From NCBI GenBank assembly GCA_964604825.1, contig CAZSAL010000004.1:11400-75399 (forward strand): DNA of 64,000 nt. The letters run 5' to 3'. The notes under the pieces are model-generated. The model saw only the letters and a program-made list of their open reading frames with translations. It ran no database searches and was not told the origin of the DNA. This document shows, in pieces, positions 8,133-54,453 of the stretch (its first letter is position 1; the number at the start of each line of letters is the position of its first letter). The DNA is from an uncultured Elusimicrobia bacterium. Lineage in GTDB: Bacteria > Elusimicrobiota > Elusimicrobia > 2-01-FULL-59-12. The translations under genes and the position numbers were made by a program.

Positions 8133-8554
8133 CCACTTCCGCTAAAAACCGAAGTAAAAGAGCATCAAAAGTCGAAATCGACGTTCCCTTCTACGATGTA
8201 GATGGTCTAAATATCGTATGGCATGGGCATTACTTTAAGTACTTTGAAGCTGCTCGGACCGCGTTCTTACGCTCTATCGGGTTTGACGCGCCTGAAATGC
8301 GGCGATCTGGGTACATTTGGTTGGTTATCGAGTCCCATTGCCGTTACGTTGCTCCCATGCGCTACGGCATGAAAGTACTGGTCCGCGCTTCATTAGCGGA
8401 TTTCGAGCATCGCGTGAAATTTCTTTACACCGTTTTTGACAAGAAGACTCGGCGACGATTGGCCACCGGGTACACCGTCCAGGCCGCTGTCCATGCCAAA
8501 ACAGGAGAATTGTGTCTTATGACCCCTCCTATTTTTCTCCGCCATCTGAAATAA
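8129..8554 (+). CDS. 4HBT-family hotdog thioesterase
   Basis: YDVDGLNIVWHGHYFKYFE motif typical of 4-hydroxybenzoyl-CoA thioesterase-like proteins; ATGA overlap. Confidence 0.6.
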   Translation: MTTSAKNRSKRASKVEIDVPFYDVDGLNIVWHGHYFKYFEAARTAFLRSIGFDAPEMRRSGYIWLVIESHCRYVAPMRYGMKVLVRASLADFEHRVKFLYTVFDKKTRRRLATGYTVQAAVHAKTGELCLMTPPIFLRHLK

Positions 8555-8561
8555 GGCGTTA

Positions 8562-25400: not shown

Positions 25401-25544
25401 GTAGCCTTTTTAGATTTTCTAAGGGAATTTGCGGTTACAAGGAAGAGACAGCTGTTCTTTGCAACAGCAAATACGAGACTCGCAAATCTATTTACTAAGA
25501 AGTTTTCTTTCTTGGGTGACGAATTCGTAAATATTACCCTATGA
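22431..25544 (+). CDS. Rad50/SbcC-like SMC-family ATPase with a central zinc hook and an N-terminal extension of about 200 aa of unknown fold
   Basis: Walker A GPNGVGKT near aa 225. CPLC zinc-hook near aa 603, flanked by long coiled-coil sequence. C-terminal signature-like STGQRA plus Walker B MILIDD. ATGA overlap with the upstream gene. Confidence 0.75.
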
Positions 25545-28397: not shown

Positions 28398-31300
28398 CCC
28401 TTTCCGGCTATTCCGAGGATCGCCTTATACAGGCCCCGACCGTTGAGCTATTCGGCAAGCTGAAATGGGACACGGCAGATTGTATGGGCGAGTTCGATAG
28501 CGGAAAAAGCACGCTTGGCAGGGAATCGAAAGGCGACGTCGTGCTGGTCAAGAAATTGCGCCCCGCCCTTCGCAAACTGAACCCGGACCTGCCAGAAGAG
28601 GCCATCTCCCTTGCCATCGAAGAGATCACCCGTGACCGGAGCGTGATGAGCCCGGTTGCCGCCAACAAGGAAATCTACGAGGCGTTGAAAACCGTGGTGA
28701 AGGTTTCTTGCCGGAGCCAGGAGGCGCAGGAAGAGGAGACGTACACGGTCAACGTGGTCGATTGGCAGACGCCAGCAAACAACGATTTCTTCCTTGCGTC
28801 GCAGTTTTGGGTGGCAGGGGATATGTATACCCGTCGTGCGGACTTGGTCGGTTTCGTCAACGGGCTCCCCCTGGTTTTCATCGAATTGAAGGCCGCTCAC
28901 CGCAACTTGGAAGAAGCCTACCGGGGCAACTTGCGGGACTACCGAACAGCCATCCCGAAACTCTTTTGGTACAACGCCTTCAACGTCCTATCCAACGGTA
29001 TCGACAGCCGGATCGGCACGATCACGAGCGATTGGGAGCACTTCGCCGAATGGAAGAAGATCAACAGCGAGGGCGAAGAGGGCATTATTTCCTTGGAAAC
29101 GATAATCAGGGGAGTCTGTGATAAGGAAAAGCTCCTTGATTTGGTCGAGAATTTCACCCTATTCGTCGAAGCGAAGGGCGGTCCGGTCAAGATGTTGGCC
29201 AAGAACCATCAGTATCTTGGCGTAAACAATGCCGTTCAGGCGTTGACCCAGATCAAAGAGAAAAAGGGCCGTCTCGGCGTCTTTTGGCATACGCAGGGAA
29301 GCGGGAAGAGCTATTCAATGGTGTTCTTTTCGCAGAAGGTCCTCCGGAAGAAGCCAGGTAATTGGACGTTCCTTGTCGTAACCGATCGTAAAGAGCTGGA
29401 CACTCAGATTTATAGGAACTTCGCTAGTGCCGGGGCGGTCACGGAACAGGAAGCGCAGGCGACTAGCGGGGCTCACCTGAAACAGCTTCTCAGGGAAGAT
29501 CATCGCTTTGTTTTTACCTTGATCCAGAAGTTCGGGACGGACGGGGGCGCAGCCTTTCCCGTGCTTTCGGAGCGTTCCGACATTATTGTAATCACCGACG
29601 AAGCACACCGATCGCAATACGATACCCTGGCCTTGAATATGCGGACGGCATTACCCCAGGCCGCCTTCATCGCTTTTACTGGGACACCTCTCATCGTCGG
29701 CGAAGAGAAGACCAAGGATGTCTTCGGCGATTACGTCAGTGTCTACAACTTCCGGCAATCCGTGATCGATGGGTCTACCGTCCCGCTTTACTACGAGAAC
29801 CGCATCCCGGAGCTTCAGCTTACTAACCAGCATCTGAACGAGGATATGGAAACATTGCTTGAGGCCACCGACTTGGACGAGAACCAGCAGCGACGCCTCG
29901 AGCAGGAGTTCAGCCGGGAATACCACTTGATCACCCGCGAGGATCGCCTGAAACGGATAGCGGAAGACGTGGTCGAACACTTCACGGGCCGGGGCTTTCA
30001 GGGCAAGGCGATGGTCATCAGCATCGACAAAGCTACCGCCGTTAAGATGTATGACCGAGTCAAAACCCGTTGGCCGATTCATTTAGCCAAGCTGCGCCAG
30101 GAACTTCAAAGCACCCAGGATGCCGAACAGAAAGCCGATTTGGAAAGACGGATCACCTTCATGCAAACGACGGACATGGCGGTCGTCGTATCACAGGGGC
30201 AGAACGAGGTTGAGGATTTGAAAGCAAAAGGGGTGGACATTACGCCTCACCGCTATCGTATGGTCCACGAAGATTTAGAAACCAAGTTCAAGACTTCCGA
30301 AGACCCGCTACGACTCGTTTTCGTTTGCGCCATGTGGATGACGGGCTTTGATGTCCCGTCATGTTCAACGATCTACCTGGACAAGCCGATGCGGAACCAC
30401 ACGCTTATGCAGACGATCGCCCGGGCTAACCGTGTATGCGGCGAGAAACTGAACGGCTTGATCGTGGATTACGCCGGCGTCTTTCGCAGTCTGCAGAAAG
30501 CCTTGGCTATCTACGGCACAGGGGTAGGCGGCACGGCGACCCAAGGCGATATGCCCGTTCAGGCCAAGCAGGAACTTATTGAAGGATTGCGCCACCACGT
30601 GGCACTGACGGTCGATCTATGCGAATCAAAGGGCGTAGACCTGTCGAAGATTATTACGAGCACGGCGTTCGAGCGTGTTAAGCAGATGGAGGATGCCCGG
30701 GAGACCATGATCGCTGACGACCAGACAAAGAAGCAGTTTTTGGCTTCTGCGACTTCTATTCACCGCCTTTTCAAAGCCATCCTTCCTGACCCGGCCGCAA
30801 AGGAATTGTCGCCACAATGTTCGGCTATCGTCAGGCTGGCCGACAGCATCCGTTCGTTGGCAGGACCCGTCGATATCTCTGAAGTCATGCAGGATGTCGA
30901 AGAATTGTTGGACGATTCCGTGGCGTCCGCCGGGTACGTGATCCGGGATCGGGGGCCAGAGAAGCGGATCGACTTATCTAAGATTGATTTTGAAGCCCTT
31001 CAGAAGAAGTTTGCTGCCGGATACAAACGGACGGAGATTGAACGGCTGAAGGCTTTGCTTCAAGGGCGACTCGTTGTCCTTGTGCAAAAGAATCGCACGA
31101 GGATGGACTTCCTTGAACGCTTCCAGAAGATGATGGATGAATACAACGCCGGGGCGGTCAACATCGATGAGTTCTTCAAGCAATTGGTTGCCTTCTCCCG
31201 GCAGTTGGACGACGAAGACAAGCGGGGGATTACCCAGAATTTAAGCGAAGAAGAGCTGGCCGTCTTCGATCTGCTCACAAAGCCGGAGCCAAAGCTCACC

Positions 31301-31555
31301 AAGAAGGCCGAAGTGGAAGTGAAGAAGGTAGCGAAGCAATTATTAGAGAAATTAAAAGCTGAAAAACTCGTTCTCGACTGGCGGAAACGTCAGCAATCCC
31401 GGGCCGCTGTCCGGCTATGTATCGAAGAAGTTCTTGACCAACTACCGCAGGATCTCTATCCCAAGCCAGTCTATGCCAAAAAATGCGACCTAGCCTATCA
31501 GCACATCTACGAAGCTTACTATGGAAGTGGCGCAAGCATCTATCAGACGGCATGA
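28394..31555 (+). CDS. hsdR: type I R-M restriction endonuclease/helicase subunit HsdR
   Basis: SF2 helicase motifs including DEAH (VITDEAHRSQ). Start ATG 28394 overlaps the hsdS stop (ATGA). The listed start 28256 is internal to hsdS. Confidence 0.85.
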   Translation: MTLSGYSEDRLIQAPTVELFGKLKWDTADCMGEFDSGKSTLGRESKGDVVLVKKLRPALRKLNPDLPEEAISLAIEEITRDRSVMSPVAANKEIYEALKTVVKVSCRSQEAQEEETYTVNVVDWQTPANNDFFLASQFWVAGDMYTRRADLVGFVNGLPLVFIELKAAHRNLEEAYRGNLRDYRTAIPKLFWYNAFNVLSNGIDSRIGTITSDWEHFAEWKKINSEGEEGIISLETIIRGVCDKEKLLDLVENFTLFVEAKGGPVKMLAKNHQYLGVNNAVQALTQIKEKKGRLGVFWHTQGSGKSYSMVFFSQKVLRKKPGNWTFLVVTDRKELDTQIYRNFASAGAVTEQEAQATSGAHLKQLLREDHRFVFTLIQKFGTDGGAAFPVLSERSDIIVITDEAHRSQYDTLALNMRTALPQAAFIAFTGTPLIVGEEKTKDVFGDYVSVYNFRQSVIDGSTVPLYYENRIPELQLTNQHLNEDMETLLEATDLDENQQRRLEQEFSREYHLITREDRLKRIAEDVVEHFTGRGFQGKAMVISIDKATAVKMYDRVKTRWPIHLAKLRQELQSTQDAEQKADLERRITFMQTTDMAVVVSQGQNEVEDLKAKGVDITPHRYRMVHEDLETKFKTSEDPLRLVFVCAMWMTGFDVPSCSTIYLDKPMRNHTLMQTIARANRVCGEKLNGLIVDYAGVFRSLQKALAIYGTGVGGTATQGDMPVQAKQELIEGLRHHVALTVDLCESKGVDLSKIITSTAFERVKQMEDARETMIADDQTKKQFLASATSIHRLFKAILPDPAAKELSPQCSAIVRLADSIRSLAGPVDISEVMQDVEELLDDSVASAGYVIRDRGPEKRIDLSKIDFEALQKKFAAGYKRTEIERLKALLQGRLVVLVQKNRTRMDFLERFQKMMDEYNAGAVNIDEFFKQLVAFSRQLDDEDKRGITQNLSEEELAVFDLLTKPEPKLTKKAEVEVKKVAKQLLEKLKAEKLVLDWRKRQQSRAAVRLCIEEVLDQLPQDLYPKPVYAKKCDLAYQHIYEAYYGSGASIYQTA

Positions 31556-43590: not shown

Positions 43591-44145
43591 ATGGCCACCA
43601 AAGCCGCAAAGACAACGAAAGAAAAAGTAGCGCCTGCGCCGGAGACCAAAACCCCGCCCGCCAAAGCTCCCGAGCCGACTCAACAGCCGAGTCCATCAAC
43701 GCCTGCGCCGCAGCAGACGTCTGTCGCCGATGCGCCCGCCGTATCCACACAAGCTTCCGTTGCGCCGCCGAATGGTGTTCGCATGCCGGCGATCAATGAC
43801 GTCCGCGTAGCGGGACGCCTCACTCGCGATCCCGTCATTCGGGAAGTCGGCAGCCAGAAAGTCGCCAACTTCGACATCGCCGTTGAGAAACGCTACCGCG
43901 ACGCACAGAACCAGTGGCAGAAGCAGGTCTCCTTCGTCCCCTGCGCCGTTTGGGGAGTCGTGGCCGACCGCGCGAGGGAATTCCTAAAGAAAGGCAGTCC
44001 GGTCTATCTCGAAGGACGGCTTCGCTCCCAGTCCTGGCAGACCCGCGATGGTCAGAAGCGTTCCATCATGCGTCTGGAAGCCTTCAAAGTGCAGTCGTTG
44101 GCCAGAGGGCAAGCGCGGAGCCAGGGACAGGAAGTCGGCGACTGA
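43591..44145 (+). CDS. ssb: single-stranded DNA-binding protein with a Pro/Ala-rich disordered N-terminal extension of about 65 aa
   Basis: SSB OB-fold core (RLTRDP...VWG...YLEGRL...W...). Lacks a canonical acidic C-terminal tail. Confidence 0.7.
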   Translation: MATKAAKTTKEKVAPAPETKTPPAKAPEPTQQPSPSTPAPQQTSVADAPAVSTQASVAPPNGVRMPAINDVRVAGRLTRDPVIREVGSQKVANFDIAVEKRYRDAQNQWQKQVSFVPCAVWGVVADRAREFLKKGSPVYLEGRLRSQSWQTRDGQKRSIMRLEAFKVQSLARGQARSQGQEVGD

Positions 44146-44154
44146 GGCTAAGCC

Positions 44155-44565
44155 ATGGTTGATACGAACCCAGCTCCAAATAATGCGTATCCGCCTGACG
44201 ACGTGTCCCGTGCAAATGACTTCCGCCTGGCGGGACGCGTCGCGGGCGATGCCATCTTCCGCGGTCTTGACGGGCGAAGGTTCCTCCAATTCCGCCTGGC
44301 CGTCGAAAGAGACTACAGGGATGTTTCGGACCGGGAAGAAAAGCAGGTCACCTATGTTCCGGTGGCCGTTGGGGGAACGTTGGCGACTTACTGCCGGCCA
44401 TTTCTGCGGGATGGGACCCCGATCTATATCGAAGGACGGGTGCACTCACATACCGTGAAAACTCCGGACGGCGGTCAACGTACTCAATTGCGCTTCGACG
44501 CCTTCAAGGTGCAGTCGCTCGCGCGGGGCCAAAGCCGGAGCCAGGGACAGGACATTGCAGACTAA
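44155..44565 (+). CDS. SSB-like OB-fold protein (paralogue 2)
   Basis: Paralogous to the upstream ssb; shares the C-terminal FKVQSLARGQ.RSQGQ tail. Confidence 0.65.
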   Translation: MVDTNPAPNNAYPPDDVSRANDFRLAGRVAGDAIFRGLDGRRFLQFRLAVERDYRDVSDREEKQVTYVPVAVGGTLATYCRPFLRDGTPIYIEGRVHSHTVKTPDGGQRTQLRFDAFKVQSLARGQSRSQGQDIAD

Positions 44566-44589
44566 ACAGCACCGTCGGGAGGTTTATCC

Positions 44590-44985
44590 ATGAATGACAC
44601 AGTTCGGAAACAAGCACCGCCGGGCCTTCTGACGCAGAAGGCTCCGCGGATGCTGTCGGTCAACAAGGTTCGTCTGGCAGGACGTCTGACCCAGGACCCG
44701 GAAATCCGGTCGGCGATCGGCGACAAAATGATCGTGCATTTGAATCTGGCACTTGAGCGTCCTTACCAAGGCAGTACCGGACATCTGCGACAAGAGCTCA
44801 CGTTTGTTCCGGTCACCGTTTGGGATAGCCTGGCGGACAGTGCGACCCGGGATCTCAAAAGGGGAAGTCCAATCTACGTTGAAGGCAGGCTTAAGAGTGA
44901 TCGATGGAAGGCCGGAAGCGGAGAGGTTTGTTCCGCGCTGAAAATCGAAGCCTCCAAACTCCAGATGCTTTCAGCGGCGGCTTAA
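44590..44985 (+). CDS. SSB-like OB-fold protein (paralogue 3)
   Basis: Paralogous OB-fold core (RLAGRLTQDPE...YVEGRL); divergent C-terminus. Confidence 0.65.
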   Translation: MNDTVRKQAPPGLLTQKAPRMLSVNKVRLAGRLTQDPEIRSAIGDKMIVHLNLALERPYQGSTGHLRQELTFVPVTVWDSLADSATRDLKRGSPIYVEGRLKSDRWKAGSGEVCSALKIEASKLQMLSAAA

Positions 44986-45275
44986 GGCGCCGCGCGCCTT
45001 GGCCGGCGCAGGCTTTCCCACTCGGCTAGAAATCCCTGTCGGCTAAGCTTGACTCTTTTGAGCCGATCGCTAGTCGTTGCGGCCAAAGCCAAGCAGGCGC
45101 TGCACAACGAATACACATACTGTTCCTTCCAGGAGAGTAAGACTGTGAGACCGGCCGTCAACAAAATACTGATTCCCTGAGCATAAGCCTGTAAATCTAT
45201 GAAATTTCCTTTCTTTGCCACTTCATCGCGGTACTGGATTCTCGCGTCTTTTGTTCCGTTCTTCGTCATTGTCAT
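44982..45275 (-). CDS. hypothetical small membrane protein (two predicted TM helices)
   Basis: Minus-strand ORF in the 720-bp gap; start taken at MTMTK with an AAGGA upstream. Only weak support. Confidence 0.25.
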   Translation of the reverse strand: MTMTKNGTKDARIQYRDEVAKKGNFIDLQAYAQGISILLTAGLTVLLSWKEQYVYSLCSACLALAATTSDRLKRVKLSRQGFLAEWESLRRPRRAAP

Positions 45276-45706
45276 TGGTCCTTTCGATGCTTCGCTATCC
45301 GCGAAGACACCGCGAACCAACGGCGAGCAATGAAGGGTCCCGCCCAGGGATCGACCGGCCCGCAGGGATCGGGGAGACCTGGAACATTCAGGGCGTCCTG
45401 AGAAGGCGTCACCACGCCGGTTCATGCCGTGGATACATCACGGCATGGAGGGGCGACCGAGCGTCAGCGACGGAGAGGGAGGAGGGGAGGGATAAATGCG
45501 AAGCGTTTATGCTCGCCAGCGACCTTGACGAGATCCATCACAGTCGCCGGCCATGTGGCGACCCCTCGCCCCGCGAGCTGGGGCAGCTGCTAAAATGGAG
45601 CGTCTACGGGGGAAAGCTCAGCCCCAACCACTATTCTCACTAAGGCCTTCGATAGCTGCTGTCGAAGCGTTGACTTGCCTCCTAAAAATGGGTAGAAAAT
45701 GCCCCA

Positions 45707-45735
45707 TTGACAATTGGCCATCTAATTAATATGGT
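45707..45735 (+). promoter_or_regulatory. candidate sigma70-type promoter for the Ubl-like / E2 / E1 / JAB operon
   Basis: TTGACA, 17-nt spacer, then TATGGT, about 30 nt upstream of the AGGAGG-ATG of the first gene. Confidence 0.4.
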
Positions 45736-45764
45736 ATGTGCAATTGTAGTAATCAGGAGGAAAG

Positions 45765-45959
45765 ATGGACAAAAAACCGACAATTCAGGAGCTGGAAGCT
45801 CTGCTAAACAGCGAAGAGGAGACTCCTATCCAGATTCTACCCAACGGGGAAATCCGACCTGTGGGCCAGGTGAACCCTGCAGATCTAGGAACAAAAAAAC
45901 CTCTGACGATGAAAGAAAATCTGGGGGGCGAGTACGGGGGGCAGCCTGGTGGATATTAA
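45765..45959 (+). CDS. small acidic protein (64 aa) ending in Gly-Gly-Tyr; candidate ubiquitin-like / Pup-like modifier or tag
   Basis: AGGAGG SD. C-terminus ...GGQPGGY. 11-nt overlap with the GTG start of the E2-like gene. Confidence 0.4.
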   Translation: MDKKPTIQELEALLNSEEETPIQILPNGEIRPVGQVNPADLGTKKPLTMKENLGGEYGGQPGGY

Positions 45960-46326
45960 CCGGATTCAGCGAGAATTTTTGGAAGCACAAAAGACGTTCG
46001 CGTATTTAGAACTGCATCCGACCGCAGATGGACGGGTATTCGCGAAAACTGCCCTTCAAACGTCCATTCAAATGTACGTTTTATCGATTAAATTCCCTGA
46101 CAATTACCCTTATGAAATGCCCAGCGTTTATGTTGATACGCCTCCAATCGCCATTTCACCGCACCGGTACAATAGCGGCAATATATGTTACCTGCATCAT
46201 GCGATGTGGAATCCCGGCATTCACCAACTTTCCTTTGTTATCGGACGCGCGGCAAAATGGTTAAACAAGTACGAAATTTGGAAACGCAATGGTGGCCAGT
46301 GGCCCGGCGCAGAGATAAAGCACTAA
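45949..46326 (+). CDS. ubiquitin-conjugating-enzyme (E2/UBC)-like protein with candidate catalytic Cys
   Basis: UBC-like HPN-region analogue FPDNYPYEMPSVYV and catalytic-Cys context NSGNICYLHH. Confidence 0.55.
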   Translation: MDINRIQREFLEAQKTFAYLELHPTADGRVFAKTALQTSIQMYVLSIKFPDNYPYEMPSVYVDTPPIAISPHRYNSGNICYLHHAMWNPGIHQLSFVIGRAAKWLNKYEIWKRNGGQWPGAEIKH

Positions 46327-46335
46327 GAGGTCATC

Positions 46336-46866
46336 TTGAAAATTGAATTTAAAACTCTAAATATGATGCAGCTCAGAAAATCTCCCGGAGAGGTCCTGGA
46401 TCGTGTTGCCCGAGATGGGGAGGTCTTCGTTGTGGAAAGGAACGGGCAGCCCAAGGCTTGTTTGGTCCCCGTCTCATTCCTCATGCCGGATGTATCGCCT
46501 GACCGCATTACCGATGAGCTAAACAAGCTCCGCGATAAAAATGAAAATTTCAAGGTGACCATTAGCGACGGCAAAGAGTTGGAAATCAGCTTCCACGAAG
46601 TCGCCGCGGGCGAAAACGTTGTGGTGACCGTCACTCTACCTCACGGATATCCCAATTCTGCCCCTCGAATTCAAGTTCCACAGTTGCCGTCGAACACGCC
46701 CAAACGATGGCAAGATGGTTCCTTGTCCATTTTTGGAGCGACGGCGACGTGGAATACAAAAAATCACGACGTCGTTTATGCGCTGGGCGAGGCGAGACGA
46801 TGGCTACGACAATATGCAAAGTGGCGCAAAAATGGTGAGTGGCCGACAACGCCGGAGGGCGCTTAA
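46336..46866 (+). CDS. E2-like paralogue lacking the catalytic Cys (UEV-like), with a Phd/YefM-antitoxin-like N-terminal extension
   Basis: LPHGYPNSAPRIQV and DGSLSIF (Cys replaced by Ser) are paralogous to the upstream E2-like. N-terminus QLRKSPGEVLDRVARDGEVFVVERNGQPKACLVPV resembles Phd/YefM. Confidence 0.5.
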   Translation: MKIEFKTLNMMQLRKSPGEVLDRVARDGEVFVVERNGQPKACLVPVSFLMPDVSPDRITDELNKLRDKNENFKVTISDGKELEISFHEVAAGENVVVTVTLPHGYPNSAPRIQVPQLPSNTPKRWQDGSLSIFGATATWNTKNHDVVYALGEARRWLRQYAKWRKNGEWPTTPEGA

Positions 46867-47720
46867 TGAGCGAGGACCGAATTTTTGAGCGAATCGAATC
46901 ACTTTTTGACATTCAGCTGTTAGCGCCCGTCAAAGTCCTAATCGCTGGATGTGGGTCCGGCGGCGGGAGCGTAGCCTTGGCTCTTGTCATGTCTGGGATC
47001 CGCCACTTCGCGCTATTAGATCGCGATGTGTTAGGCCCGGAAAATGTCATCCGGCATGTCTGCGGAAGACGGTTTATCGCCAGGAAAAAAGTGGACGCTC
47101 TCGCCGAAGTTCTGCTGGATCGAAACCCGAACGCCGATATACGAAAAATAGAAGCGGACATCATGAGCTATCCCGATATCGAAACGGAGATTAAAGCGGC
47201 GGATGTGGTCGTGCTCGCGACCGACAATGAACCGTCCCGCTACAAAATTAACGAAATCTGCGTTCGAAATGCCATCCCCTTTGTGGTCGGTCGCGTCTTC
47301 ACCCGAGGAATCGGCGGGGAAGTCTTCAGTTACAGGCCCGAATCGGGGGGATGTTTGGCTTGTCTTGAAGCGTCCTTACAGCGGACCCCGTTTAGAGAGG
47401 GCATCAAAGAGATTGACTTGGTTTCTGAGGAAGAACGGCAAAAAGTCTATGGGATGGAAATATCGGAAATAAAGGATTCCCCCGGACTGATCATCGACAT
47501 ATCCTTTATTACCTCCTTTCATGCGCGCTTTGTCTTAGACGCAGTCGCGCGACGGTTGAAAGAACGTCCGAAATATCTGAGCTTGATTGACGAAAATTAT
47601 CTCATTTGGGGAAATCGTCCCACCCACCCCTTTAAAAGGCATTTTCAGGTGCAGCGAATCATTCTGAATCGCCAAGAGGCTTGCGGAGTTTGTTCCGGGA
47701 AGGTTGGGGCCGATGTTTAG
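46839..47720 (+). CDS. E1-like ThiF/MoeB-family activating enzyme
   Basis: Rossmann GCGSGGG motif and a ThiF-like central region (ATDNEPSRYKINE). Confidence 0.8.
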   Translation: MADNAGGRLMSEDRIFERIESLFDIQLLAPVKVLIAGCGSGGGSVALALVMSGIRHFALLDRDVLGPENVIRHVCGRRFIARKKVDALAEVLLDRNPNADIRKIEADIMSYPDIETEIKAADVVVLATDNEPSRYKINEICVRNAIPFVVGRVFTRGIGGEVFSYRPESGGCLACLEASLQRTPFREGIKEIDLVSEEERQKVYGMEISEIKDSPGLIIDISFITSFHARFVLDAVARRLKERPKYLSLIDENYLIWGNRPTHPFKRHFQVQRIILNRQEACGVCSGKVGADV

Positions 47721-48615
47721 ATCAAAAACTTTGCAGATTCGCGTGTCGATCGCGAAAAAGGCTCTTGAGGCCATCTTTGACGAATGCGACCGGTTTGATA
47801 TGGATGAAACGGGTGGACGAATTATCGGCGACTATCGAAAAAAAGATTTGCGGTATGACATCGAGGTTCGAGGGGTCATTGGGCCGGGTCCCAATGCCAA
47901 GCGAACGGCCACGAGTTTTTTTCAGGACGGGGATTATCAGGAAAAGGTGTTCCGGTCTGTTGAACAAAGTCATCCGGATATCGAACATCTGGGTAATTGG
48001 CACACGCATCATGTGAACGGCTTGTCCACGCTCAGCTCGGGAGATAAAGCAACTTACCAAAACATCGTGAATCATGATCAACACAATACTGACTTCTTTT
48101 ATGCAATTCTGGTCGTCCGGAAAACTCCCGGCCGAAATCAACGCTACGACGTCAAACACTATTTCTTCCGACGTGATGATCGCGCAGTTTATGAGATACC
48201 CGACTACGAGGTTCAGATCGTCGATACGCCCATTCTTAGCCCGCTGCTCTCAGAAGGAACCGTTTCTGCGCCCACCCCATCGCGGCAATACGATGTTCTA
48301 GGCTACGCCAACCAGGAACGCGTCAGAGATCAGGAATTCTTTTCCGAGTTCTTTCCGGCGTTCAGACCCTTATTGTCCAAGAGCACGGGCACTTTCTATT
48401 GGAAAGGAAAATTGGACCTAATCGATGGGCGCGCAATCGATGTTCTGGCCATGGAAATCGCCGGCACATCGTCTTATTCCGTTACCGTGTCAGGACAAAA
48501 GATACCCACCTTGGACACCATCGCAAATTATAGGGACCGTGCTTTTAAATCAGCCCGGCAGGCCGTCATGGATCTGGAGAGAGATATGAATCAAGAAATG
48601 TACCGCAAGAAATGA
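47704..48615 (+). CDS. JAB/MPN (JAMM) metalloprotease-domain protein
   Basis: Upstream Glu, then HTHHVNGLSTLSSGD (HxH...SxxD JAMM-like motif). Confidence 0.7.
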   Translation: MGPMFRSKTLQIRVSIAKKALEAIFDECDRFDMDETGGRIIGDYRKKDLRYDIEVRGVIGPGPNAKRTATSFFQDGDYQEKVFRSVEQSHPDIEHLGNWHTHHVNGLSTLSSGDKATYQNIVNHDQHNTDFFYAILVVRKTPGRNQRYDVKHYFFRRDDRAVYEIPDYEVQIVDTPILSPLLSEGTVSAPTPSRQYDVLGYANQERVRDQEFFSEFFPAFRPLLSKSTGTFYWKGKLDLIDGRAIDVLAMEIAGTSSYSVTVSGQKIPTLDTIANYRDRAFKSARQAVMDLERDMNQEMYRKK

Positions 48616-48619
48616 CCCC

Positions 48620-49465
48620 ATGAACATTATTACGGTCAATGTGGGTCAAGGCGCTCTCTCCATAGTCCGGCATCAGACGGAAGCCATTATTGTAGATTCG
48701 AGAATTCCTCCGTCGGATGACGACACTGTAGCCTTTGTCAAAGGAATGCTGGCCACGTCATTGAAAGGCCACTATGTGAAAGGGTTAGTATTGACAGGAT
48801 TTGATAGCGACCATCTGGATGTTGTCGGTCTCTCGATCGTTCTCCCCAAGTATCGGCCCGATTGGGTCATGTATCCCAAATACTATAAAGACAGCGAAGA
48901 GGCCAAATTGGCGTTTGATCTCATCACCGAACAAGAAGACCTTCGACGTGGTTCCGCCAATCCGTTGGAAAGAGTATCCGTCCGGCTTGACGTGCTGTCC
49001 AACCGCAAACTTTCCGGTCTCTCCTCCAACTTCGACTTTGAGCTATTCTCGCCGCACATTGCGGATATGGATAATTCGAATAATTCCAGCATTGTTCTCA
49101 AATTGACAGGAATAGGGGCAGGTGGATTTTCCTACTTGATCACTGGCGATACGGAAAACGAACGATGGAAAACGATCAGCGAATTGTTCGGAGGTGCCTT
49201 GAAGGCACATGTTTTGGCAGCGCCCCATCATGGGTCAAAAAATACCACTCATCCCGCCTCATTGCTTCATATCAATCCGCACACCGTTCTGATCAGCGCC
49301 GGCGTAGACAGTCAATATGGCCATCCCAGTCCAGAAGCCGTTAAAGTCTATCAACGAGTTGCAAGATATGTTTTCTCGACCAATATGGGAAACGGCGTTT
49401 CACTCCTCACTCAACCAGGTCTCACCGAGATCACGACGACACTAATCCCGAGTTCGGATGCATGA
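48620..49465 (+). CDS. metallo-beta-lactamase-fold protein (ComEC C-terminal-domain-like)
   Basis: LTGFDSDHLD and APHHGSKNT motifs of the ComEC-type MBL domain. Confidence 0.6.
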   Translation: MNIITVNVGQGALSIVRHQTEAIIVDSRIPPSDDDTVAFVKGMLATSLKGHYVKGLVLTGFDSDHLDVVGLSIVLPKYRPDWVMYPKYYKDSEEAKLAFDLITEQEDLRRGSANPLERVSVRLDVLSNRKLSGLSSNFDFELFSPHIADMDNSNNSSIVLKLTGIGAGGFSYLITGDTENERWKTISELFGGALKAHVLAAPHHGSKNTTHPASLLHINPHTVLISAGVDSQYGHPSPEAVKVYQRVARYVFSTNMGNGVSLLTQPGLTEITTTLIPSSDA

Positions 49466-50121
49466 AAAAGGGAAAAAGTAGTGCACCCACCGCTTACTTA
49501 AAAAGCAAGAACGCGATCTCTCTATGGTCATTCATCGGCGTGCATCTGGCCATTTTCCTCTCCCTGTCTATCGGCAAGCAATGGAATAGTGCCTCGGTGA
49601 ATCATTTTTGGGGTCGCATTACGACAAAAGATGGTCTGATTGCTGCCTGCATGCCCATCATCACCATTGTCTTGACCGGACTTCTCGGCGATACCGGAAA
49701 GGCGCGACTGATTTTCTGGCGGTGGCGTGATCCCTTGCCGGGATGCCGAGTGTTTACGGAACTTATGGCAGCAGATCCGCGCATTGATCACGGAATTCTA
49801 AAGACCAAACACGGAACACTCCCTTCTGAACCCCACGCGCAAAACGCCCTGTGGTATAGGCTTTACAAAAAGCATCTGGCCAAAGCGAATGTAAGCGAAT
49901 CGCATCGAATCTATTTGTTGATGCGTGATATGACAGTTGTCTCGGCCATCTTCGCTGTCCTGCTTCCAGTCGGCGTTTTCATGGTGTCGGTCGACAGGCA
50001 AGTCGTCATCATTTACAGCGCCGCTCTTATAGCGGAATACATGATCCTTGCTACCTCGGCGAGAAATTACGGCGAACGGTTTGTTTTAAACGTTCTCGCT
50101 GAAGAAGGTAATGCGCCTTAG
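49462..50121 (+). CDS. hypothetical polytopic membrane protein
   Basis: ATGA-coupled to the MBL gene; about 4 hydrophobic helices. Confidence 0.4.
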   Translation: MKKGKSSAPTAYLKSKNAISLWSFIGVHLAIFLSLSIGKQWNSASVNHFWGRITTKDGLIAACMPIITIVLTGLLGDTGKARLIFWRWRDPLPGCRVFTELMAADPRIDHGILKTKHGTLPSEPHAQNALWYRLYKKHLAKANVSESHRIYLLMRDMTVVSAIFAVLLPVGVFMVSVDRQVVIIYSAALIAEYMILATSARNYGERFVLNVLAEEGNAP

Positions 50122-50292
50122 CGTTAGCCAGTGAATCTTAAGACCTAAATCCTCCTTTCTCTGGTTCCGTCCGAGACTCCTCGGGGCCAAATAGAACGAT
50201 TTCCGGTTCCCTCATCCTCTCTTTAGCAAACCCTATCAGGTTCTAATCGTACGACGAACTTCAACATTATTTTCCGTCTCGCTTTTTCATTC

Positions 50293-50544
50293 TAAGGGTT
50301 GGCGGGTGGAGGCATAGCGGGCAGGCGACACAAAATCGTTGCCCCCTGCGCTTGCGGGGCCCCACCATTTTGTCCCGCCGGATCGCGCCCGCTACTCCCT
50401 ACCCCACGGACGGCCGTCAACCGTGGGGTGTCGCTCGATCCGCCAGACGTCTGGCGGATCGGTTAAACCTCCTCCCTCCAACCCTTTACCCGAATTGTGG
50501 CTCGCCAGATGCGTGGCGGGACTACTTCACGAGGAGACAATCAC
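50293..50544 (+). ncRNA. unclassified structured leader element, copy 1 (multi-hairpin, anti-SD-containing), immediately upstream of a hypothetical gene
   Basis: About 80% identical to 53248..53494. Conserved hairpins with compensatory changes. CCUCCUCC anti-SD-like segment and a downstream GAGGAG SD. Confidence 0.5.
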
Positions 50545-51180
50545 ATGAATAACGAAGTGCCGGTTAAAGAAGTGGCCGCCAAGATGCTGGCGGTCTGCAA
50601 CAGCCTGGGATGGAAGGTTGATATGCCATCGGATGAATTCAGTCACGTGTACCTGAAGGCGCAGGTCGAGGGGTTTCCATCCTCCTACGCCTCACTCACC
50701 TATGGACGGTATCCCTGCGAAGGACGGATCACGGTCACGGCCAATTCCAACCATGATTCGGCCATCTACCGCTACGGAGAAAAGCACCTGAGCATCAGCG
50801 TGAGCGCCAGTCGACCCGCCGAGGCAATCCTGAAAGAAATCCAGCGGCGGTTTGTTCCGACCTATCTTGAGATCGCCCGGAAAGCGGAAGAAATCCATCA
50901 CCGGCACGAGGAATACAGCCGGAAACTGGAGTCCTGTATGGGAGATTTGAAGGGGGAACCCCTGGATGAGCCCGAAAGGACAAATGGGAAGGTTCGTTTT
51001 CACTTGGACGATATCTGGGGAGCGGTGCAGTATGCGAGCGATGACCAACTCGCCATCGACTTTCATAATGTCCCGGCGGAGAAAGTAGGCCGCATCCTGG
51101 CGATTCTGCGGGAGAAGGTTGGTTCACTGAAGGAGGAATCCCTTGTATCGGATTCAGTGAGAGGTAACTGCCATGAATAG
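50545..51180 (+). CDS. hypothetical protein (211 aa)
   Basis: ATG 50545 follows SD GAGGAG; the rest of the listed ORF lies inside the structured leader. Confidence 0.5.
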   Translation: MNNEVPVKEVAAKMLAVCNSLGWKVDMPSDEFSHVYLKAQVEGFPSSYASLTYGRYPCEGRITVTANSNHDSAIYRYGEKHLSISVSASRPAEAILKEIQRRFVPTYLEIARKAEEIHHRHEEYSRKLESCMGDLKGEPLDEPERTNGKVRFHLDDIWGAVQYASDDQLAIDFHNVPAEKVGRILAILREKVGSLKEESLVSDSVRGNCHE

Positions 51181-51475
51181 AAAATATCTAGCGCTCCACG
51201 AAGCGATCAGCGAAGGCCGCGCGGAGTGGGGCAATGTTCAGATTCCGTCCAGCTTGTTACCTCCTGGACGCAAGTGCCTCAATCAGTTCTGCGAAAGTCT
51301 CTTCTGCAGTCGCCATCACCCGGTCCCGTCATTGGCCGAGGAGCGATGGTACGTCAAACGGTTCCTTGGAGTGAGCTGGATCTTTTTCGTACCTCGGAAT
51401 CATTGGCGTCGGTGGTGCTTGCTTGCCGCGTTTAAATCGCACCGTGACGCGCAGGTTTACCTGAACACGCTGTAG
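51173..51475 (+). CDS. small hypothetical protein with a CxxxxC...CxxHH cluster
   Basis: ATGA-type coupling with the upstream ORF; Cys/His cluster KCLNQFCESLFCSRHH. Confidence 0.35.
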   Translation: MNRKYLALHEAISEGRAEWGNVQIPSSLLPPGRKCLNQFCESLFCSRHHPVPSLAEERWYVKRFLGVSWIFFVPRNHWRRWCLLAAFKSHRDAQVYLNTL

Positions 51476-51539
51476 GGAAGTTTAACCACAGAACCTGGGA
51501 GGCGCTTAACCGCCTTTCGTATATGGGTTGTATGCAGTG

Positions 51540-51590
51540 AGGGCGGGTTGTTCACCAGACCGTTGGTGGATGGCCCGCCTTCTTTATTGT
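51540..51590 (+). terminator. candidate rho-independent terminator
   Basis: GGGCGGG ... CCCGCC stem with an inner CACCA/TGGTG helix, followed by TTCTTTATTGTC. Confidence 0.45.
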
Positions 51591-51637
51591 CTGACTCGCT
51601 TCCTCTGGAGGCGAGAACTTAAAACAAGGAGAACAAC

Positions 51638-53119
51638 ATGCCAACGAAAGAAGTCGCACAGCTGCAAATGGCCGTAAAAGAGATCGTGGAAGGGTCGAAT
51701 TGCCGCAGCCGGATGAATCCCGGCAAGTTCGAGGAGCTGGTGCAGAACGTCAAGAAAGTGGGGATTTTGGAACCGGCGCTTGTGAGGAGGGACGCGGAAG
51801 GGAAGGTCATTCTGATCGCAGGGCATCGGCGCCTGGCGGCGGCCAAAGCCGCTGGGTTGGAAAATATACCGGTGCGGCTCTTGGAAGTGGATGAGAAGCA
51901 GGCTGCCGAAATACAGACCTTGGAGAATCTCCACCGGGAAGACCTTGCGTCGATGGATGAAGCTCGGGCCTTCAAACAACTCCTGGATGGGGGTTCGCAC
52001 ACGATCGAGTCACTGGCCGCTCAAATAGACAAGTCACCTACCTACGTCTATCGGAGCCTGAGGTTGCTCGAATTGCCGGCCAAAGCAATCAAGGCTCTGG
52101 AGGAGGGGATTATCACCACCGGCCACGCACAGCAAATCCTGCGCGCCCCGGAGAAAAACGCCGAAGCGCTCGTGGCCTTTGCGACCACACGTATGGAATG
52201 GCAGAAACGCTATCCCAGCGTTTCGGAACTGCGGGAATACGTCGAGAAACGCATCGCCAAGGACCTTGCGGCGGCGCCGTTTCCGAAAGACGTACCGTAC
52301 GCAGAACAGGTCGCGTGCAACGCCTGCCCGTTCAATACCGGCAACCAGAACGTGCTCTTTGATGGCGCAACCAAGGGTCACTGTACGAACCCCGGCTGCT
52401 TCAACCGCAAAACAGCCGCCTACTACAAAGAGCTACAGACCACGGCAGCCGCCAGGTACGCGGGGCTGAAGTTCCTGGGAACCGCTTCAGATAACGGGTA
52501 CGCTTCGGGCCCCCAACAGATCAAAGGGGCGTATGTGGTGGAAAAGCTCGACGACAAAATCAAGAAGGCCATTCAGGCCAAACCGGATCAGTTCGGGTTC
52601 GGGATCGTAAAGCCCTCACGCTGGGGAGGGAAGAAGGCGCGTGTCGTTCTTCTCTGCAAAGAAGCGAAGTTGGCGGGGGTGAAGGAAGTGAATCGTGCAC
52701 CGGCCTATCGGGAACAAACCCCTGAAGAGCGCGAACGAGAGGAGTTTATTCGAAGCCATGTTCAAAGAACCTACGCTGCGCTTGCCGTCGAAATGCTGGA
52801 GTTTGATAAAGAGGACCTCCTCGCGCTTCTACAGGAGGAATGGGACGATGATTGGAAACGTCGCCGGGTCCTGCCATTCCTGGAAGCCTCGGGAGTTTCA
52901 GAATCAGATGCAGAGGAGGGTAAGTTTCCGGCAGAGGTTCTGGAAAAGAAAAGCCGGGATTCGTTGATCCAACTCGTGCTCTTGTCGATGCTCAATGACA
53001 ACAGCGATTCGATCGGCTCACTTTTGGAGGTCAAAAAAGTGAAAGTGCAGGAAGTGCTCAATAAAGCTCAGGCCGAGGCGCTCAAGGTCTGGAACGAGAA
53101 GCATCCCCAGGCCGCATAA
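51638..53119 (+). CDS. ParB/Spo0J/KorB-like N-terminal-domain protein
   Basis: ParB N-terminal domain (ILEPALVRR...IAGHRRLAAAKAAGLENIPV); SD AAGGAG. Confidence 0.75.
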   Translation: MPTKEVAQLQMAVKEIVEGSNCRSRMNPGKFEELVQNVKKVGILEPALVRRDAEGKVILIAGHRRLAAAKAAGLENIPVRLLEVDEKQAAEIQTLENLHREDLASMDEARAFKQLLDGGSHTIESLAAQIDKSPTYVYRSLRLLELPAKAIKALEEGIITTGHAQQILRAPEKNAEALVAFATTRMEWQKRYPSVSELREYVEKRIAKDLAAAPFPKDVPYAEQVACNACPFNTGNQNVLFDGATKGHCTNPGCFNRKTAAYYKELQTTAAARYAGLKFLGTASDNGYASGPQQIKGAYVVEKLDDKIKKAIQAKPDQFGFGIVKPSRWGGKKARVVLLCKEAKLAGVKEVNRAPAYREQTPEEREREEFIRSHVQRTYAALAVEMLEFDKEDLLALLQEEWDDDWKRRRVLPFLEASGVSESDAEEGKFPAEVLEKKSRDSLIQLVLLSMLNDNSDSIGSLLEVKKVKVQEVLNKAQAEALKVWNEKHPQAA

Positions 53120-53140
53120 GTCATTCCCGTCGCACTGAAG

Positions 53141-53182
53141 GCCGGCTCTCTCCCAAACGGAGAGGGTCGGCCTTTTTTTTCG
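53141..53182 (+). terminator. rho-independent terminator
   Basis: 14-bp GC-rich stem (GGCCGGCUCUCUCC / GGAGAGGGUCGGCC, two G-U pairs), 5-nt loop, then a run of 9 T. Confidence 0.7.
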
Positions 53183-53247
53183 ACTGCATACCTCGAAAAC
53201 GGAAATCCTGATTTATCGCGTCGTGGTTGGAAAGCGTGCTATCGAGC

Positions 53248-53494
53248 ATTCCCATTGTAAGGGTTGCCGGAAGGAGGCATAGCGGACAGACGGAACAAAA
53301 TCGTTGCCCCCTGCGGGGCCCCACCATTTTGTTCCGTCTGATCGCGTCCGCTACTCCTTACCCCACGGGCGGCCGTCAACCGTGGGGTGTCGCCCGGCCC
53401 CTTCCGGGGCCGCGTTAAACCTCCTCCCGTCAACCCTTTGCCTTTCAGTGGCTCGCCAGACACACGGCGAGACTATCACGCGAAGGAGAAAGAC
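53248..53494 (+). ncRNA. unclassified structured leader element, copy 2
   Basis: Paralogous to 50293..50544; same helices with compensatory substitutions. The anti-SD CCUCCUCC opposes the downstream GAAGGAG SD. Confidence 0.5.
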
Positions 53495-53776
53495 ATGACG
53501 ACCATACGAGACAACATGAAGGACCTGGTGCAGCGGATGCTGGTGACCAAGGGGATTACTTCTGAAGAACAGGCGTATGAATGGGCCTGTGGGATTGCCG
53601 ATCACCTGGGATTGGATGGGTTGGAGGGGGATCAAATCGGGCGGCTGGCCTGTGTGATCCTCACCACATTGAAGGGAACGACGACCCTTTATCACAAGCC
53701 GGCCGAGGTGCCGGTGGTGTGGATCAACTTTGACGATCTCAGGCGCGAAGGCGTCGAGTCCGTGGAGGTGTTCTAG
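53495..53776 (+). CDS. hypothetical protein (93 aa)
   Basis: ATG 53495 after SD GAAGGAG; the rest of the listed ORF lies inside the structured leader. Confidence 0.45.
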   Translation: MTTIRDNMKDLVQRMLVTKGITSEEQAYEWACGIADHLGLDGLEGDQIGRLACVILTTLKGTTTLYHKPAEVPVVWINFDDLRREGVESVEVF

Positions 53777-53778
53777 CC

Positions 53779-54453
53779 ATGGAAACCACCCAACAAGCTG
53801 ACTTGATCCGGGATTTGCCGCCCTGCATTCGTCCTCTGTCGCGACTGGGAACCTTGGGTGTGGAAGCGCTCAAGGAGGCCGAGCTGCTTTCGCTGGCGGT
53901 CCGGTCACGCTCGCTGCGCTGGCCAGAGGAAGTGCTGGGTCGTCACAGTGTGAAGGAATTGCTGGGGATGCCCTGGCAGAGACTGGCTTCGCTGCGCGGG
54001 ATAAGCCATGCGGGAGCGGCGGCGCTTTTAGCTTCGGCGGAACTGGTACGGCGCGCGTCGGGCCAACCGGATGCGGGCCGGCCCGTTCTTCAATCGGTGG
54101 GGGATGTGGCGGTGCAGGCTCTGGAGATACGAGACAAGAAAAAAGAGTACCTGCTCGCCTTCTTTCTGAATGCCCGGCATCAGCTGATCGCTAAAGAGAT
54201 CATCTCGATCGGGACGCTGACGGCGTCTCTGGCACATCCTCGAGAGATCTTTGCTCCGGCGATTGGACAGGCCGCGGCGGGGGTCGTGCTCGTGCATAAC
54301 CACCCCTCGGGAGATCCTTCACCCTCGGATGAAGACGTCCGACTGACCAAGCGCATCGCACAGGCGGGCCAGATCATGGGCATAGAGTTGCTCGACCACC
54401 TTATTCTGGCTTCGTCTGGAACTTTTTCGTTTAAGACCAGCGGTGCGCTCTGA
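53779..54453 (+). CDS. radC: RadC-like JAB-domain protein
   Basis: HNHPSGDPSPSDEDVRLT JAMM motif and RadC family C-terminus. Confidence 0.85.
   Translation: METTQQADLIRDLPPCIRPLSRLGTLGVEALKEAELLSLAVRSRSLRWPEEVLGRHSVKELLGMPWQRLASLRGISHAGAAALLASAELVRRASGQPDAGRPVLQSVGDVAVQALEIRDKKKEYLLAFFLNARHQLIAKEIISIGTLTASLAHPREIFAPAIGQAAAGVVLVHNHPSGDPSPSDEDVRLTKRIAQAGQIMGIELLDHLILASSGTFSFKTSGAL

Follow-up and report, generated by a model that had tools for sequence, protein, structure and literature searches.

Bacterial systems that use E1-, E2-, and JAB-type proteins are the closest described relatives of the subject of this study, a seven-gene cassette on a conjugative element of an uncultured Elusimicrobia bacterium (assembly GCA_964604825.1, contig CAZSAL010000004.1). 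The stretch of this contig that was analyzed comprises 64,000 nucleotides and is called the window below, and all positions refer to it. One described relative is 6A-MBL, which is presented in the summaries given by PMC13276650 and PMC11601596 as operon class 6a of Iyer, Burroughs & Aravind 2006, consisting of an E2-E1-JAB triple fusion and a metallo-beta-lactamase (MBL)-fold protein. According to the same summaries, van den Berg et al. 2024 reported that 6A-MBL is active against phages in P. aeruginosa. In an anti-phage signaling system that is based on cyclic oligonucleotides (CBASS), an E1-type enzyme acts on a C-terminus that is not of the beta-grasp type, the cGAS tail (10.1101/2022.03.31.486616). 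In the Bil and Bub systems, the E1, E2, peptidase, and small substrate are separate genes, as are their presumed counterparts in the cassette described here, and the Bil and Bub peptidases process the substrate C-terminus beforehand (PMC10557695, PMC11601596). Furthermore, a Bub substrate can be fused to its E2 and then cut off (PMC11601596).

The cassette occupies positions 45765 to 50121 and consists of seven closely packed open reading frames (ORFs), here called A through G, that all lie on the forward strand. Each ORF is present as described in the original prediction, which had been made from the DNA letters alone. We find that the cassette, mobile and self-contained, is related in a “split” form to the E2-E1(-JAB) fusion modules of Type II CBASS and 6A-MBL, and that it is itself apparently undescribed: no account of its architecture or of the A family was found in the literature searched, which left out the primary 6A-MBL paper. 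That it is a conjugation-type module of the CBASS/6A kind we regard as very probable. The families to which its proteins belong and the conservation of their catalytic residues uphold the earlier reading of an E1/E2/JAB module with a Cys-less, Phd-fused E2 paralogue, an MBL-fold protein, and a membrane protein.

Enzymes of a probable split conjugation module

Related loci were gathered by five routes: homologues of A, species-representative genomes, a match on a plasmid, a search of metagenomes with the MBL protein, and divergent A representatives. The counts below refer to distinct loci in which B is complete and preceded by 260 nt or more of DNA. Gene A lies directly upstream of B in 47/47 distinct loci, and the order A-B-C-D-E-F is kept in 46 of these 47.

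Gene B (45949-46326), whose GTG start overlaps A, encodes a 125-aa protein of the UBC fold. It matches the E2 models of Pfam (UQ_con, 1.1e-5) and PADLOC (E2, 2e-10), and its homologues carry the precomputed family PF26395 (E2-CBASS). A PADLOC “Cyclase” match of B is limited to the E2-like C-terminal stretch of that model (positions 421-542). When aligned by sequence through the active site, Cys80 (46186-46188), which is the Cys of the GNICY motif, falls on the catalytic Cys of solved eukaryotic E2s, and both Cys80 and His72 are invariant in 48/48 homologues. The earlier assignment of B as an E2 with its Cys in GNICY is thereby borne out, and with a catalytic Cys and an upstream His this protein is predicted to be an active E2.

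Gene C (46336-46866) encodes an N-terminal Phd/YefM-like domain (aa 6-47, 46351-46476) followed by a second E2-fold domain (aa ~58-170). The N-terminal domain matches PF02604 (6.4e-7) and TIGR01552 (1.3e-5), and this match is partial, covering profile positions 2-43 of 74 with a score of 29.5 bits, below the cut-off of 29.8. By tblastn (1e-8 to 1e-14) the C-terminal half is paralogous to B, and it also matches the PADLOC E2 model (3.3e-5); 864 homologues share the same architecture. The fusion of a Cys-to-Ser E2 paralogue with a Phd/YefM-like N-terminus is thus as originally proposed. The position of the catalytic Cys, which is Ser131 in the window, holds Ser in 46/52 homologues, Ala in 5/52, and Gln in 1/52, and the His at -8 from this position is not conserved. 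Because of these substitutions and the loss of the upstream His, the E2 half of C is, judged by its residues, catalytically dead and similar to a ubiquitin E2 variant (UEV) rather than to a Bub-style serine E2; the presence of Ala or Gln in 6/52 homologues makes Ser131 unlikely as a catalytic residue that forms oxyesters. C also does not have the makeup of a Phd/YefM antitoxin, as the cassette includes no toxin gene and the C-terminus of C is an E2-like domain.

An active E2 encoded beside a paralogue that lacks the catalytic Cys and His recalls Ubc13-Mms2/Uev1a, an arrangement that positions the acceptor during synthesis of K63 chains. There are differences, in that C carries a Phd/YefM domain and a third E2-fold domain resides on the JAB protein; a B-C heterodimer and the formation of chains would be hypothetical here.

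Gene D (46866-47720) encodes a single-domain E1 of the ThiF/MoeB type. Gene calls on identical contigs and the junction sequence, a TAATG overlap with C, favor a start at ATG 46866, which yields a 284-aa protein, over the longest ORF, which starts at GTG 46839. The protein matches PF00899 (ThiF, 1.1e-30) and the PADLOC E1-E2 models (up to 9e-30). Its Gly-rich ATP loop GCGSGGG and two CxxC zinc motifs are invariant. The ThiF-type assignment holds. No Cys was found in the crossover loop on the basis of conservation and a map of Cys residues, which speaks against a catalytic Cys at that site.

Gene E (47713-48615) likewise has a more probable start at ATG 47713, as called on identical contigs, than at TTG 47704, where the longest ORF begins. 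Its product comprises a JAB/JAMM metalloprotease domain (aa 1-170, ~47713-48222), a disordered linker, and a C-terminal domain. As expected for the JAB/JAMM protease that had been predicted, the JAMM motif (which includes His97 and His99) is invariant, and by fold the JAB domain comes closest to Cap3. Homologues of E number 1528. Plasmid matches to E are CBASS-like systems. Beyond the original description, E carries a third inactive E2-fold domain, an E2/RWD-like domain without Cys (aa ~200-300, ~48310-48612).

The best solved sequence relatives of D are MccB (4e-12), then the SUMO E1 and ThiF. MccB adenylates the C-terminus of the peptide MccA. The cassette could accordingly be read as a microcin C-like peptide-adenylate pathway, or as one of the type that makes ribosomally synthesized and post-translationally modified peptides, in which the E1 would adenylate A, the MBL and JAB proteins would process it, and the membrane protein would export the product or confer immunity. 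A is indeed a short peptide that has a conserved C-terminus but lacks its own fold. However, the peptide-clamp domain at the N-terminus of MccB has no counterpart in D, where the ThiF domain starts at residue ~28, and the gene that follows F often encodes a patatin rather than a transporter. Moreover, an E2 with invariant Cys and His, two more E2-fold domains, and a Cap3-like JAB domain point to protein transfer. We consider such a peptide pathway very improbable.

As far as 6A-MBL is characterized in the two summaries cited above, the cassette shares with it an E2, E1, and JAB of the CBASS/Atg7-like branch, an adjacent ComEC-like MBL protein, and carriage on mobile elements. The same sources describe 6A-MBL as one polypeptide in a two-gene operon, whereas the three enzymes of the cassette are three genes, and B, D, and E are separate ORFs both in the window and in 46/46 complete related loci. 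The single E2-E1-JAB polypeptide that defines 6A-MBL is absent, and the corresponding NCBIfam model (6A-MBL_cap2_3, NF058523; cut-off 320) gives 54.8 bits with D and 43.7 bits with E. An MBL-fold gene is adjacent and always present in the cassette loci, although the window protein F scores 34 bits against the 6A-MBL_enzyme model (NF058524; cut-off 220) and is closer to ComEC-type models. Relative to 6A-MBL as summarized there, the cassette has additional parts, namely a small Gly-Gly protein, the Phd/inactive-E2 protein, the E2/RWD-like domain appended to the JAB protein, and an effector gene that varies between loci.

Type II CBASS is similar in other respects: the E2 of the cassette belongs to the E2-CBASS family, its JAB domain is most like Cap3, the E1 substrate, here presumed to be A, is not a beta-grasp protein, and a patatin effector is shared with CapV. 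Transmembrane (TM) effectors are also part of the Type II CBASS repertoire. The cassette differs in keeping E2 and E1 separate and in having as its presumed substrate a separate 57-aa protein instead of the tail of a signaling enzyme. No cyclase/nucleotidyltransferase or nucleotide-sensing domain was found among the seven cassette proteins with Pfam, PADLOC, or NCBIfam. Compared to Bil and Bub, the substrates of those systems are beta-grasp ubiquitin-like proteins (Ubls), and A is not. The Bil E1 combines inactive and active adenylation domains with a Cys domain, whereas D is a single ThiF domain, and Bub relies on Ser oxyesters, whereas B has the invariant Cys80.

The small protein A and its conserved C-terminus

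Gene A (45765-45959) encodes a small acidic protein, the candidate modifier of the system, which in the window is 64 aa long and ends in GGQPGGY. There are 524 close homologues, and a profile search of 1.84 billion cluster representatives returned 530 clusters at 50% identity with E<=1e-3 (230 with E<=1e-10). Despite this size, the family has no entry in, and A matched no family of, Pfam, NCBIfam, PADLOC, or PHROGs. The conserved core of 57 aa (45765-45935) opens with an amphipathic stretch at the N-terminus, TIQELEALLNSEE, after which come ILPNGE(I/V)R, which is invariant, a variable linker rich in Gly, Lys, and Ser, and then KPLTM(K/R)ENLGGEY. The listed family members all have ILPNGEIR...KPLTMRENLGGEY, or a sequence close to it, ahead of a tail that varies, and the family matches end at, or a few residues before, the protein C-terminus in almost all clusters. 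Relatives of A commonly terminate as ...LGGEY-stop, so that the conserved end ...KPLTMRENLGGEY falls at 57 aa; among close homologues, 38/119 have no tail after the EY, and the remainder have tails of 2 to >15 residues. Gly54 is invariant or nearly so and Gly55 is invariant, Glu56 and Tyr57 are likewise conserved, and variable tails lie beyond.

In the window, the core of A ends in KPLTMKENLGGEY, with the LGGEY codons at 45921-45935, and codons 58-64 (45936-45956) form a nonconserved tail. The origin of this tail is evident from the DNA alignment. The common form of the junction reads ...GAA TAC TGA, followed by a short G-rich spacer with the ribosome-binding site of the E2 gene and then ATG GAT ATC, which is the E2 start. 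In the window the stop codon has been lost and the frame continues through the E2 Shine-Dalgarno sequence and start, such that GGT GGA TAT TAA overlaps GTG GAT ATT AAC. Both the GGY terminus and the 64-aa length are therefore accidents of read-through, and the terminal GGY is ruled out as a functional end.

These findings change the picture in which a Gly-Gly pair one residue from the C-terminus would be freed by JAB removal of a terminal Tyr. Neither that pair nor the Tyr is conserved, the relevant residues are Gly54-Gly55, and any trimming would take the EY plus the tail, or the tail alone. The resemblance to Pup (64 aa, ending GGQ) that had been remarked on is coincidental. A is like Pup in being small, acidic, and largely unfolded, with a Gly-Gly near a C-terminus for which processing would be needed. 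However, the two show no sequence relation (hhalign probability 0.1% for the A family profile), and the shared length results from the read-through. Pup is ligated via a Glu side chain by a glutamine-synthetase-like enzyme, not by E1/E2 enzymes, and no cassette protein matches the PafA/Dop family of Pup ligases in Pfam or NCBIfam.

The small ORF is a real gene. Across 45 ungapped A genes, the synonymous and nonsynonymous differences (pS 0.76, pN 0.17) give a pN/pS of 0.22, and over the last 13 conserved codons (45-57) pN is 0.064 and pN/pS is 0.08. Each of the Leu, Gly, Gly, Glu, and Tyr codons of LGGEY varies synonymously while the residues stay the same, and purifying selection thus acts on the A protein. 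The possibility that the Gly-Gly is conserved as a by-product of the E2 Shine-Dalgarno sequence is ruled out by the same low ratio and by third codon positions that vary where the residues are constant.

A beta-grasp fold, which the original prediction had proposed to look for, was not found. An AlphaFold2 model based on a 56-sequence alignment has a helix (7-16), a hairpin (22-24/30-32), and unstructured residues 33-64. Comparison of the family profile with ubiquitin gave an hhalign probability of 0.2%, and a Foldseek search with the model yielded no structural neighbor at E<=0.001.

With its conserved Gly-Gly and variable tail, A looks like the precursor of a processed modifier, by analogy to the substrates of Bil and Bub. 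This comparison draws on the invariant Gly-Gly, the variable extension, the neighboring JAB protease, and an occasional fusion to E2. In one representative, P0395 (186 aa), A is naturally fused in frame to the E2, and this fusion would need cleavage as in BubAB (PMC11601596). A broader proposition is that A founds a new kind of modifier, a separate mini-tag of ~57 residues without a beta-grasp fold that is processed by the JAB protein, ligated by E1, E2, and UEV components, and met by phage decoys and deconjugases. This proposition is plausible, but we would not bet on it at even odds.

Alternatively, A might escape conjugation and serve as a pseudo-substrate or regulator, its LGGEY plugging the adenylation site of the E1 or the active site of the JAB protein and so holding the system off, or it might tether the complex. 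The real E1/E2 substrate would then be another protein of the cassette, the host, or a phage, and the A-like proteins of phages discussed below would be inhibitors. The EY is as invariant as the Gly-Gly, which is odd for a propeptide that is discarded, and the 38/119 close homologues noted above end exactly at EY. Moreover, A is mostly coil when modeled alone, and its occurrence by itself in phages would suit an off-switch. Against this alternative stand the tolerated tails of very different length and the A-E2 fusion, for which proteolytic processing is the easiest explanation. A C-terminal Gly or Ala occurs in none of the other cassette proteins, and within cassette loci the linkage of A to the E2 gene is 100%. 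On balance, we regard a role for A as a pseudo-substrate as unlikely.

Two further observations concern divergent A members (P0361-P0508). In 92/124 of these proteins the first tail residue beyond GGEY is Gly or Ala, and the tail ends in -AA in 28/137 (for example, ...GGEYAEAA and ...GGEYGVAA), which is reminiscent of ssrA-type C-terminal degrons.

Candidate operator, putative effector slot, and genomic setting

The promoter/operator region of the cassette (45707-45760, forward strand) comprises a -35 element TTGACA (45707-45712), a -10 element TATGGT (45730-45735), two CAATTG palindromes (45711-45716 and 45741-45746), and the AGGAGG ribosome-binding site of A (45755-45760). TTGACA-17-TATGGT matches the promoter consensus at 10/12 positions, in agreement with the sigma70-like promoter and AGGAGG noted earlier. 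Because promoter-like sites are not above chance in this region (4 found, 5.1 expected), the promoter call rests on its position and on its conservation in other loci. Upstream of A, 46 distinct loci have in common a -35 TTGACA and a repeated (G/A)TGCAATT(G/A) that surrounds and follows the -10. The density of GCAATT/AATTGC is 9.0 per kb in the 80-nt stretches upstream of A compared to 0.61 per kb elsewhere in the loci, a 15-fold difference, and in about 10 loci the palindrome GTGCAATT-N5-AATTGCAC is present with at most a few mismatches. Since the Phd/YefM-like N-terminus of C is the only domain of a DNA-binding type in the cassette, the simplest explanation is that C might repress its own operon, and the conserved CAATTG-type sequence suggests itself as the candidate operator.

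Gene F (48620-49465) encodes a 281-aa cytosolic MBL-fold protein of the ComEC type (TIGR00361, 5e-24) with an APHHGS motif, as had been recognized, and with no predicted TM segment. In an alignment of eight orthologues APHHGS is invariant, and motif 2 reads GFDxDH in place of HxHxDH, with the first two His lost. The MBL enzyme of 6A-MBL is treated as the conjugated substrate in the literature. The C-terminus of F, in contrast, is TTTLIP plus a variable stretch without Gly or Ala, and F is for this reason judged unlikely to be the E1 substrate by analogy to CBASS or 6A-MBL.

Gene G (49462-50121) is coupled to F through an ATGA overlap and encodes a membrane protein with four predicted TM segments (residues 19-37, 53-71, 150-168, and 172-190); both points confirm the earlier description. 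However, this seventh position alternates between a patatin-like phospholipase and at least five unrelated TM families. A membrane protein of the G type is found in 30 loci by matching to G (21 when downstream ORFs are clustered), a patatin in 22 loci, and a second unrelated TM family in 14 loci, with rarer TM proteins in others. The effector type tracks the phylogeny of the core genes, as the nearest neighbor of D is of the same effector class in 38/42 cases, and core proteins are ~73% identical across effector classes.

The MBL protein and its membrane or phospholipase partner look like an effector pair onto which a conjugation module has been grafted, by analogy to a known case. In Type II CBASS, Cap2 and Cap3 are similarly grafted onto pairs of cyclase and effector. 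Another likeness is to PDC-M48 (M48A plus M48B) in PADLOC, although these matches are weak: F matches PDC-M48B (4.9e-9), and one TM family of the seventh position matches PDC-M48A in a related locus (2e-4), G itself being without a match. PDC-M48 differs in having no E1/E2/JAB module. On a viral contig (L095:7434-8819), a TM protein comes ahead of an F-like MBL protein (48% identity) beside phage structural genes and without E1, E2, or JAB, which suggests that an MBL-TM pair can work on its own. In two other loci (L021:~1832-2713 and L040:~7959-9134), the gene after F encodes a second MBL-fold protein, which in L021 matches PDC-M48B at 7e-142. These may be adjacent separate systems rather than occupants of the effector slot.

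Homologues of A, C, and E are abundant in soil and peat metagenomes, and cassettes occur in Acidobacteriota and Proteobacteria, including Acidobacteriaceae, Terracidiphilus, Alphaproteobacteria, and metagenome-assembled genomes of Methyloceanibacter. A cultured host is Mesorhizobium sp. AR10, in which plasmid pMspAR10a carries a copy (116452-120167) with a patatin in the seventh position. The annotation of this copy reads hypothetical / E2 / Phd-YefM antitoxin / ThiF / hypothetical / hypothetical / patatin. Because the flanks differ between loci, the cassette moves as a unit. The combination of genes is therefore not an unusual one peculiar to the element in the window, as had been thought, but a fixed cassette in many unrelated genomic contexts.

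In the window, genes for VirB4, VirB11, VirD4, and three paralogues of the single-stranded DNA-binding protein (SSB) lie upstream of the cassette, and a ParB-like gene, radC, and a gene for an extracytoplasmic function (ECF)-type sigma factor lie downstream. This placement, between virD4 plus three ssb genes and parB-like plus radC, fits the earlier remark on ssb genes and candidate leading-region genes of a conjugative element. Among neighbors of other copies (145 ORFs from 29 loci) are integrases, transposases, ParB (3), ArdC (3), and RepB (2), and also defense genes: Thoeris ThsA/ThsB, DndB/C, a dGTPase, methyltransferases, and PADLOC candidate systems.

These surroundings invite the explanation that the cassette serves the mobile element, either through early leading-region expression that tags or disables host defense or DNA-processing proteins, or as an addiction module. 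The location in the window favors such a role, as do two hairpin-forming 155-nt repeats that follow the cassette, the recurrence of ArdC, ParB, and RepB near other copies, and the derivation of the Phd/YefM-like domain from a toxin-antitoxin family. However, many chromosomal copies have no conjugation genes nearby, and the existence of many copies in other settings indicates that placement on a conjugative element is not intrinsic to the cassette. A swappable patatin/TM slot is typical of suicide-type immune effectors, Thoeris, Dnd, and other defense genes are among the neighbors, and the stand-alone A and JAB genes of phages described below fit better with phage countermeasures. We consider service to the element improbable.

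Other features of the region are as follows. The three tandem SSB paralogues (184, 136, and 131 aa; 43591-44985) lie right after virD4, and the first has a long N-terminal extension rich in Pro, Ala, and Thr. Defense-type cargo is present further upstream, including an ATPase similar to that of ABC-three-component systems (22431-25544; MComp1 and SMC_N matches) and a Type I restriction R subunit (HsdR, 28256-31555). The ~155-nt direct repeats (50281-50437 and 53246-53396) are intergenic and 84-92% identical, and each sits just upstream of an ORF (50497-51180 and 53387-53776, respectively). In single-stranded form, the repeat is predicted to fold into a long imperfect hairpin (-38.5 kcal/mol, z -1.96), and it could be an element similar to the single-strand promoters of leading regions. 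A search of 45000-54000, which includes the repeat, returned no Rfam match.

Phage-borne relatives and the proposed mechanism

An IMG/VR scan with a diverse A alignment identified 18 loci with 16 full-length A-like genes (47-61% identity). The phage proteins (L102-L117; for example, L110:8001-8174, L115:3036-3230, and L116:7995-9065) retain ILPNGE and LGGEY, and no homologues of B through G lie within 8 kb of these genes. In 5/16 phage loci, the A-like gene is the next one after the portal gene and comes before those for the scaffold and major head proteins; the portal genes of L110 and L116 match phrog_156 (5e-97 and 2.5e-112, respectively). Most others sit amid small accessory ORFs, and two copies (L106 and L107) share a single contig. 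A corresponding scan with an E alignment yielded five viral loci (L120-L124; for example, L123:6013-6504 and L122:6007-6516) that encode JAB-only proteins of 163-179 aa. These are 48-55% identical to the JAB domain of E, with the catalytic motif intact and without the C-terminal domain. Two of the five genes adjoin terminase or portal genes, none of the five loci has an A-like gene, and the proteins belong to no PHROGs family. Phages that carry only the tag or only the tag remover, without ligation enzymes that we could find, form a counter-defense pattern in which A-like proteins would be decoy substrates and JAB-only proteins free deconjugases.

The position of some of these genes allows another reading, in which A was originally a phage protein. 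The cassette copy would be a bait that binds the head or portal through its helix-hairpin, whereupon the E2 would cross-link it and poison capsid assembly. This is a Bil-like variant of the immune model set out below, with a defined target, and the phage copies would be originals rather than decoys. The genes that directly follow the portal favor this reading, as does the conjugation by Bil of its Ubl to a phage structural protein (PMC11601596). Opposed to it are the majority of A-like genes among small accessory ORFs, the contig with two copies, and the 47-61% identity across phages with unrelated portals, which suggests a horizontally moving accessory gene. In addition, the retention of LGGEY in phage copies that lack E1 and E2 would be unexplained unless these proteins meet host enzymes. 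We rate the bait reading, too, as improbable, although for the phage copies of A the choice between counter-defense and phage origin may go either way.

Taking these data together, we somewhat favor the view that the cassette is an immune system of the abortive-infection type with a mini-protein that is not a beta-grasp protein as its E1/E2 substrate. An anti-phage role is indicated indirectly by the variable effector slot, by neighbors from defense systems and mobile elements, and by the phage genes for A or JAB alone. The entire chain of steps would be as follows. The operon would be kept repressed by the Phd/YefM-like domain of C, bound to CAATTG-type operators that overlap the promoter. 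A would be made as a precursor from which the JAB protease E cuts after Gly55, thereby removing Glu-Tyr and any tail. D would adenylate the exposed Gly, and A would then form a thioester on Cys80 of B, which is the chemistry expected of these families; the catalytic residues for the proposed reactions of D, B, and E are conserved across homologues. The inactive E2-fold domains of C and of the E C-terminus may hold the complex together or position the acceptor, in the manner of UEV for Ubc13. A would be ligated to a target, which might be F, the effector, or a phage protein, and this ligation would control F and the product of the seventh gene, stopping infection via envelope damage, as the pattern of variable effectors suggests. 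E may also reverse conjugation. Phages would respond with stand-alone A proteins as decoys and JAB domains as free deconjugases.

Several points weigh against this immune model. Conjugation, the processing of A, and the anti-phage activity are all steps that we infer. No sensor or signaling enzyme with a recognizable product is present in the cassette. The model of A, made for the protein alone, is of moderate confidence (pLDDT 66.8, pTM 0.25). Glu56-Tyr57 shows the same invariance as Gly54-Gly55, an uncommon feature in residues destined for removal; the mature protein might end at Tyr57, or LGGEY might serve for binding instead of ligation. The lack of a crossover-loop Cys in D means that the thioester step on the E1 may be absent. 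No E1 or E2 was found in the viral contigs by scans that need exact peptide words and can miss relatives. Finally, the placement among ssb, parB-like, and radC genes and the recurrence of ArdC and ParB also fit a role in element establishment.

The copy in the cultured strain Mesorhizobium sp. AR10 makes the hypothesis directly testable. The cassette offers a compact model in which all components are separate genes, comprising an E2, two UEV-like domains, an E1, and a deubiquitinase-type enzyme. The phage copies of A and JAB would be a new class of anti-defense genes and would provide a handle on what the system senses. If A is a new kind of modifier that phages counter with decoys and deconjugases, this would be a bacterial counterpart of the arms race between ISG15 and viral de-ISGylases. 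If A is conjugated, bacterial E1/E2 chemistry is tied neither to the beta-grasp fold nor to the tail of a signaling enzyme. A free and largely unfolded mini-protein could then act as a tag, which would bear on the origin of the ubiquitin system.

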